The notes beneath the pieces are model-generated. The model did not search any database. It was not told the DNA's origin and saw nothing but the letters and a program-made list of their open reading frames with translations. Below are positions 63,147 to 64,000 of a stretch of DNA of 64,000 nucleotides, piece by piece. The stretch lies in NCBI RefSeq assembly GCF_057098645.1, contig NZ_CM169472.1, one strand, 5' to 3'. Within the stretch, counting starts at the first letter, position 1. The number at the start of each line of letters is the position of its first letter. The translations under genes were made by a program, and so were the position numbers.

Positions 63147-64000
63147 CTAAAAATTGCCGAGGGGGAACAAGGCCGGGAGCTGCGACAGCAAATATAAAAT
63201 TAGCCCAATACAACCGCCAACCAGCGTACCGTTGACACGAATAAACTGCAGATCTTTGCCGATATTTAACTCTATTTGCCGCGACATATCCCGGGCATCC
63301 CAGCTTTTTACCGTATCGCTGATGTGGCGCGTCAGGAATGCGGAAAACTCAGGCGCGACGCGGTGCGCGGCTTGTTCCAGATGACCATTTAACGACGCCC
63401 GCAAGGCATCATCGGCAATTAACGTTTCGCCAAACCATTGACCCGCCCGCGCGATACGTTCTTTCACACGAGAATCTTCACTGTTGATATCCGCTTTCAG
63501 CCATTCCCGTAAATCCCCCCCACAATTCAGTGAGATAGCGGTTAAAAGCTTCATCTTCTTTCAGATAACTTTTTACGGCATCGGCTCGCGCTGCCATTTC
63601 CGGATCGTTTTTCAGCTTGTCGATCAGGGCAAAAGTGGCGCGATCAAACGCATGGCGGATCTGATGCGCGCGATCGCGGCTGATATCATCAAGCAAAGAA
63701 TTCACCGCGTCAGAAACCAACTCCGCGCTATGTTCGCCCAGCCATTCGGTGGGCAAAATTTTGGCTTTCAGCGGATGCTCGCTCTCCAGCCAGCGAACAA
63801 TTTGCTGGGCGATAAACTTGCGCGATTTATCGCGCTGGAGAAGGGCGATCAACTGTGCGATCAGCGTATCGAGCAGCACCTGATGACGATCGTTTTTGGT
63901 CATACTCTCCAGCATCAACGCACTGGTTCCGGAAAGATCGACCTTATCAATCGCCCGATGGACCGCGCGCTTAAGCAGGCGCTGAATACGCGCATCATCG
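63147..64000 (-). pseudogene. yjiN: yjiN (DUF445 membrane protein), N-terminus beyond window end and reading frame broken by a +1 shift in a C7/G7 homopolymer
   Basis: Two overlapping minus-strand ORFs (63478-63918 and 63147-63554) become one continuous reading frame (...[19 protein letters not shown]...) if one C is removed from the 7-C run at 63515-63521. Confidence 0.5.

Follow-up and report, generated by a model that had tools for sequence, protein, structure and literature searches.

Homopolymer-slippage pseudogenes of enterobacteria, which PGAP annotates as 'frameshifted', consist of adjacent open reading frames (ORFs) that are consecutive parts of one orthologue, the frame being lost by one base gained or missing in a mononucleotide run. 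In the SSR contingency loci of Neisseria, Haemophilus and Campylobacter, the length of an intragenic G/C tract likewise sets the reading frame. In E. coli, indel rates climb steeply with the length of a homopolymer and are highest at G/C runs. A locus that combines such a run with a protein of the DUF445 family (PF04286) is yjiN. In UPEC, YjiN has been observed among the inner-membrane proteins (PMC7774453). Its gene is a conserved anchor that borders the Immigration Control Region on one side, with a role described as 'not yet clear' (PMC12707154). No function for yjiN or DUF445 was found in the literature searched, and NCBIfam returned no family model for YjiN.

We analysed yjiN at the end of a 64-kb stretch of DNA, referred to as the window. 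Two minus-strand reading frames meet there at a run of seven G, one base longer than in intact alleles. We conclude that this is very probably a genuine, inherited +1 frameshift allele of yjiN, that is, a homopolymer-slippage pseudogene of the ordinary kind.

Two reading frames of one yjiN gene

The yjiN pseudogene occupies positions 63147..64000 on the minus strand. These are the last 854 nt, at the 3' side, of a frameshifted gene of 1282 nt, whose 5' end, with the N-terminal ~143 codons, lies beyond position 64000 and outside the window. The homopolymer tract is located at 63515..63521 and is C7 on the plus strand and G7 on the coding (minus) strand, in the codons UGG GGG GGA, where intact alleles have six. 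The plus strand at 63506-63529 reads CCCGTAAAT-CCCCCCC-ACAATTCA, and the number of C at 63515-63521, as read from the letters, is exactly 7.

The upstream, N-terminal piece of the gene (63478..64000, minus strand) exceeds the window end. Past the tract it runs through 12 out-of-frame codons and then stops. The corresponding ORF is listed as 63478..63918 from its first internal start codon, and the frame is open up to 64000. The premature TGA stop (63478..63480, minus strand) is a product of the +1 frameshift and closes the ORF at 63478 with the translation ...SGYQQ*. The downstream ORF (63147..63554, minus strand) encodes 135 aa. Its stretch between 63514 and 63147 consists of the last 122 codons of the intact YjiN frame and the natural stop, and its ATG at 63554 is fortuitous. 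In the ORF list, the overlap of the two frames spans 63478-63554.

The initial annotation had taken this ORF pair for a single gene whose frame is regained when one C is removed, and the protein comparisons bore this out. After repair, the translation was identical at 283 of 283 residues to the C-terminus of YjiN from E. coli O145 RM9872 (WP_001037381.1), which is intact at 426 aa and carries DUF445. The orthologues are annotated as yjiN, DUF445 domain-containing protein, and the intact gene is 1281 nt long. A Pfam search of the intact or repaired YjiN gave a single DUF445 domain (PF04286) at residues 44-417, with E=1.3e-119 and 400.9 bits against a gathering cut-off of 33.8. The fragments were both above the cut-off, the upstream one matching positions 1-257 of the DUF445 profile and the downstream ORF positions 254-367 of 368. 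Since the pieces lie at consecutive profile positions and the repaired translation is identical throughout, they are parts of one gene that a +1 frameshift has split. The hydrophobic segments of YjiN are at residues 9-37, 42-62 and 395-424.

The extra base in comparison with the nearest complete genomes

Indel errors classically occur at G/C homopolymers, and the split could come from the assembly rather than from the organism: the true genome would then have C6 and an intact yjiN, the extra C having been introduced by base-calling or consensus polishing. No complete RefSeq genome was identical to the window at 100% and could serve for a direct cross-check of the assembly, which leaves room for this explanation. 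The nearest complete genomes are of O145:H28, are 99.8-99.97% identical to the window and all have C6. A 901-nt query over the tract matched 5,381 of 5,426 complete RefSeq E. coli genomes, and the best matches were about 20 O145:H28 genomes, with 99.9% identity over 900 nt. This value indicates that the single base is the sole difference. The C6 tract and an intact 1281-nt yjiN are present in more than 20 complete O145:H28 genomes.

The pattern of differences over the whole window speaks against an error. Between the window and RM9872 there are ~35 SNPs outside repeat arrays over 64 kb, and the larger differences comprise a presumed IS5 insertion, altered copy numbers of two tandem repeats and a CT dinucleotide indel. 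The only single-base indel in the 64 kb is the extra C in yjiN, which is also the sole difference from RM9872 within the 854 nt of yjiN inside the window. The window has three G/C runs of at least 7, and the other two, both G7 (19235-19241 and 55609-55615), agree with RM9872 in length. The CT at 13151-13152 is the only other small indel, and there the intact form of the gene is on the window side. A general excess of homopolymer indels in the window assembly was not found in this 64-kb comparison with RM9872 as the close relative.

The same allele in independent public assemblies

Carriers of the allele were sought with the 316-aa upstream product, which was built from the N-terminus of RM9872 YjiN with the extra G. 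This product, rather than the 135-aa downstream ORF, is the informative query: the latter matched one public contig only, because gene callers seldom call this ORF. In public data, at least 24 contigs from independent assemblies encode exactly this truncated protein of 316 aa. The sources are the NCBI draft GCA_029357705.1, one ENA assembly and Logan assemblies from at least 6 sequencing runs. Besides this draft, the G7 carriers include SRR5033736, SRR21020349, SRR26133514, SRR27225942, ERR8531222, DRR634178 and SRR32390182. The C7 allele is already in public draft assemblies; on the O145:H28-related background, it is absent from complete RefSeq genomes and unmentioned in the yjiN literature searched. 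In the cluster look-up, the 316-aa G7 product was on 13 contigs and the intact protein of the same background on at least 1000.

All fetched loci of the 316-aa product carry G7 (L005-L012 were inspected directly). Four of these loci, each under two handles (L006/L016, L007/L019, L010/L022 and L012/L023), show 100% identity with the window across the 3.5 kb that they share with it. L016 equals the window over 10.5 kb outside the pentapeptide-repeat array, save for one hexamer-repeat unit and one SNP. In the G7 carriers other than L017, no further single-base indels lie outside repeat arrays. L017 ('contig_5611', a Flye-style name) has G7 together with many other indels and broken genes and is unreliable as a G7 carrier; with A29, discussed below, it is the kind of case that an error would predict. 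However, the truncated product is exact on at least 24 independent contigs, and several of these have the window haplotype over 3.5-10.5 kb with no other indels. Given that the extra C is the sole single-base indel in 64 kb and that G7 recurs on independent contigs, we regard it as a real, inherited mutation. C7 as an assembly error is, on these two grounds, probably to be dismissed, and an intact C6 gene in the true genome is highly unlikely.

Tract lengths among E. coli genomes

A comparison of tract lengths with other strains had been proposed in the initial annotation. It showed lengths of 5, 6 and 7 among close relatives. By direct inspection, the tract is C6 in RM9872, C5 in RM12367-C1, RM12275-C1 and 95-3192, and C7 in A29. 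NCBI marks yjiN as 'frameshifted' in the three complete O145 genomes with C5 and in A29.

C7 and C5 alleles were counted with 79- and 81-nt queries for two haplotypes, since in a query of only 30-35 nt the low-complexity filter of BLAST would mask the run and no 28-nt seed would be left. These matched ~4,180 complete genomes, and ~1,240 of the 5,426 had no match and are outside the count. Among the genomes matched, none had C7 on the window haplotype. On the major E. coli haplotype, C7 occurred in one complete genome, the unrelated A29, and C5 in 6-7. Off-length alleles of the tract are rare across the species. In A29 (L002, NZ_CP028746.1), which alone among the complete RefSeq genomes has C7, the adjacent mdtM is likewise annotated 'frameshifted'. 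This suggests an indel-prone assembly and makes the C7 of A29 weak evidence; an assembly error may account for it. Consensus errors may likewise underlie some of the C5 alleles, many C5 genomes being assemblies of the long-read-only era.

The initial annotation had offered three options, namely a real pseudogene, a slippage-prone allele and a sequencing error. The first two were retained, with G7 in at least 24 independent contigs and lengths of 5, 6 and 7 on record, and the third became unlikely.

Haplotype backgrounds of the G7 tract

SNP markers around yjiN were scored in the G7 carriers, RM9872, the G5 carrier CP027319.1 and the outgroups TUM13936 and strain 746. The window lineage (L016, L019, L020, L022 and L023) has derived alleles at window positions 60464 and 56842 (L016:13965 and L016:17587), the ancestral allele at L016:8672 and, in most members, a derived allele at 62279. 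G7 occurs without the 62279 change in L021, L017 and L005. The 62279 SNP is therefore later than the frameshift, which indicates vertical inheritance of the latter.

L018 (SRR21020349) also has G7, but with the derived, canonical-O145 allele at L016:8672, and it groups with RM9872 at the remaining markers. Over 15.9 kb, L018 differs from RM9872 by one SNP, the extra G and one extra hexamer unit, the rest being confined to a repeat array at the contig end; further single-base indels outside that array were not found in this comparison. G7 thus occurs on two haplotype backgrounds, one window-like and the other canonical O145:H28-like. A single linear origin of G7 was first considered and is incompatible with the SNP at L016:8672 after outgroup polarisation. 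All four combinations of the state at 8672 and the state of the tract exist, and at least two tract changes must have occurred in the clade unless recombination moved the allele. Absent recombination, the markers suggest that the second event was either another gain of G7 or a reversion from G7 to G6; the polarisation behind this is based on one outgroup-rooted SNP and three unrooted SNPs and is suggestive, not conclusive. The two G7 backgrounds, the C5 alleles and A29 together mark the yjiN tract as a hotspot at which slippage recurs, and its length in nature is 5, 6 or 7.

The same data bear on whether yjiN is a phase-variable locus, in which the G tract would be a reversible switch that flips at high frequency, ON at G6 and OFF at G5 or G7. 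Slippage is reversible by nature, lengths of 5, 6 and 7 occur within the O145:H28-related clade, and the two G7 backgrounds require repeated gain or reversion. Nevertheless, a tract of 6-7 nt is short for a mismatch-repair-proficient organism; known contingency tracts usually have 8 or more. The OFF alleles are also rare, with 1 C7 and 6-7 C5 in the ~4,180 complete genomes matched, and contigs with the G7 product number 13-25 against at least 1000 with the intact protein on the same background. In addition, G7 has been inherited stably in a lineage that gained several SNPs, and a G8 product is not on record in the protein collection. The short tract, the rare OFF alleles and the stable clonal inheritance disfavour phase variation, which we consider very unlikely.

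A second pseudogene marks the window lineage. Beyond mdtM and outside the window, the gene for penicillin G acylase is split into pieces of 162 + 668 aa in contigs of this lineage (L016:2430-4970, L019 and L020). RM9872, L018 and L024 have it intact, with 846 aa. In the short gap between the acylase pieces lies the lineage SNP L016:2966, a candidate lesion.

Predicted effect of the frameshift on YjiN

We infer that replication slippage caused the extra base. Strand slippage during replication on the G6/C6 run at Trp303-Gly304-Asp305 (UGG GGG GAU) would have added one G:C pair. On the resulting mRNA (UGG GGG GGA UUU ACG), translation would leave the frame after Gly304, add 12 wrong codons and end at the TGA at 63478-63480. 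The predicted 316-aa product would be without residues 305-426, which amount to ~30% of the DUF445 domain and include the C-terminal hydrophobic segment 395-424. Both N-terminal hydrophobic segments are kept. As judged from the sequence, loss of YjiN function is the most likely outcome of the truncation, and the fragment with its two N-terminal hydrophobic segments could have some residual activity. The allele is heritable and occurs in a sub-lineage close to O145:H28 STEC that includes the genome of the window.

The effect may extend to the neighbouring genes. The interval separating yjiN from yjiM showed no terminator-like site, and its promoter-like match is at chance level only. Given the lack of such a terminator-like site, premature termination in yjiN could be polar on the downstream yjiM-yjiL if the genes are co-transcribed; such an effect is possible.

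The truncation would be avoided if full-length YjiN were made from G7 by recoding, either by +1 ribosomal slippage on GGG_G or by slippage of RNA polymerase, leaving a functional gene of reduced dosage. After a move of one base downstream, the P-site tRNA-Gly could again pair perfectly, and the frame so reached is precisely that of the wild type (W-G-D-L-R). Within the window, the downstream frame is free of additional lesions (0/283 changes), but this is expected anyway at a divergence of ~0.05%. Moreover, orthologues do not share the two-frame arrangement, essentially all of them having a single frame of 426 codons. Reading of the sequence at the GGG_G shift site revealed neither a stop, nor a rare or slow codon, nor an evident stimulatory element. 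Seven G are also fewer than the length needed for efficient transcriptional slippage. Recoding of this kind is extremely improbable. A programmed +1 frameshift like that of prfB, with the G run as an SD-like element followed by UUU, was considered separately and rejected: the site has neither a stop nor a hungry codon, re-pairing from UUU onto UUA would be poor, and conservation of the arrangement is lacking.

A weaker version joins these possibilities. The G tract of yjiN might be a low-rate reversible switch that was flipped repeatedly in the O145:H28-related clade, or a low level of full-length YjiN might be made by +1 slippage on GGG_G. We consider this unlikely. If the low-rate switch were true, with G7 having arisen or reverted at least 2 times and G5 at least once, loss or regain of YjiN would be under lineage-specific selection. 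The preferred reading remains that of an inherited slippage pseudogene.

Other features of the window

At 63240-63267 on the plus strand, antisense within yjiN, the sequence GAATAAACTGCAGATCTTTGCCGATATT is identical to the intragenic FliA-binding motif of K-12 yjiN. This motif was reported by a ChIP study of the flagellar regulon (PMC4183435).

Repeats account for some of the variation near yjiN. A hexanucleotide repeat (TATCTT / AAGATA, 3.3 copies) is found at 60149-60168, upstream of a pentapeptide-repeat gene. Its copy number varies among the window, RM9872, L016, L018 and L021, which identifies it as a fast-evolving VNTR. The pentapeptide-repeat protein gene itself contains a 24/48-nt tandem array (58471-58640) with different copy numbers in the window and RM9872, and its product has 706, 724 or 740 aa in related contigs.

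O145 RM9872 lacks a 1.19-kb insertion that the window has at 28094-29285. The insertion codes for a 326-aa transposase, which we take to be that of IS5 (InsH-like), and it adjoins an N-acetylneuraminate/sialate-esterase remnant region. The ORF at 9547-14457 lies within a defence-island-like block. In the window, with CT at 13151-13152, it is intact at 1,636 codons; RM9872 lacks the CT and its copy is annotated 'frameshifted; incomplete'. Positions 1-28000 align to a cluster of DEAD/DEAH helicase and UvrD-helicase genes in RM9872 with a gene of the STY4851/ECs_5259 family. The type II Zorya genes of RM9872 lie immediately to the left of the aligned region, just outside the window. The position of 1-28000 is that of the lptG-uxuR 'Hotspot 37' defence island (PMC12707154).

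Discussion

For annotation, yjiN in this genome is best labelled a pseudogene with a frameshift, which ought to be neither 'corrected' nor polished away as an assembly error. Within the relatives of O145:H28 STEC, the C7 allele is usable as the lineage marker of a sub-group. The G7 strains are probable natural knock-outs of yjiN and offer a ready comparison for assigning a phenotype to DUF445/YjiN.

Compared with the DUF445 inner-membrane proteins, the repaired product matches the family end to end, and its gene has the same anchor position at the Immigration Control Region as E. coli YjiN (PMC12707154). In contrast to the intact proteins of the family, the window copy is severed at profile position ~255. 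The likeness to the SSR contingency loci lies in an intragenic G/C tract that sets the frame by its length, ON at 6 and OFF at 5 or 7, and in the homoplasy of the OFF state. The yjiN tract is shorter than those of the contingency loci, however, its OFF alleles are rare and clonally inherited, and E. coli is proficient in mismatch repair. The closest match is provided by the enterobacterial slippage pseudogenes that PGAP labels as 'frameshifted'. As in these, the two adjacent ORFs are consecutive parts of one orthologue and are put out of frame by a single base in a mononucleotide run, and the yjiN case shows no difference of substance from them.
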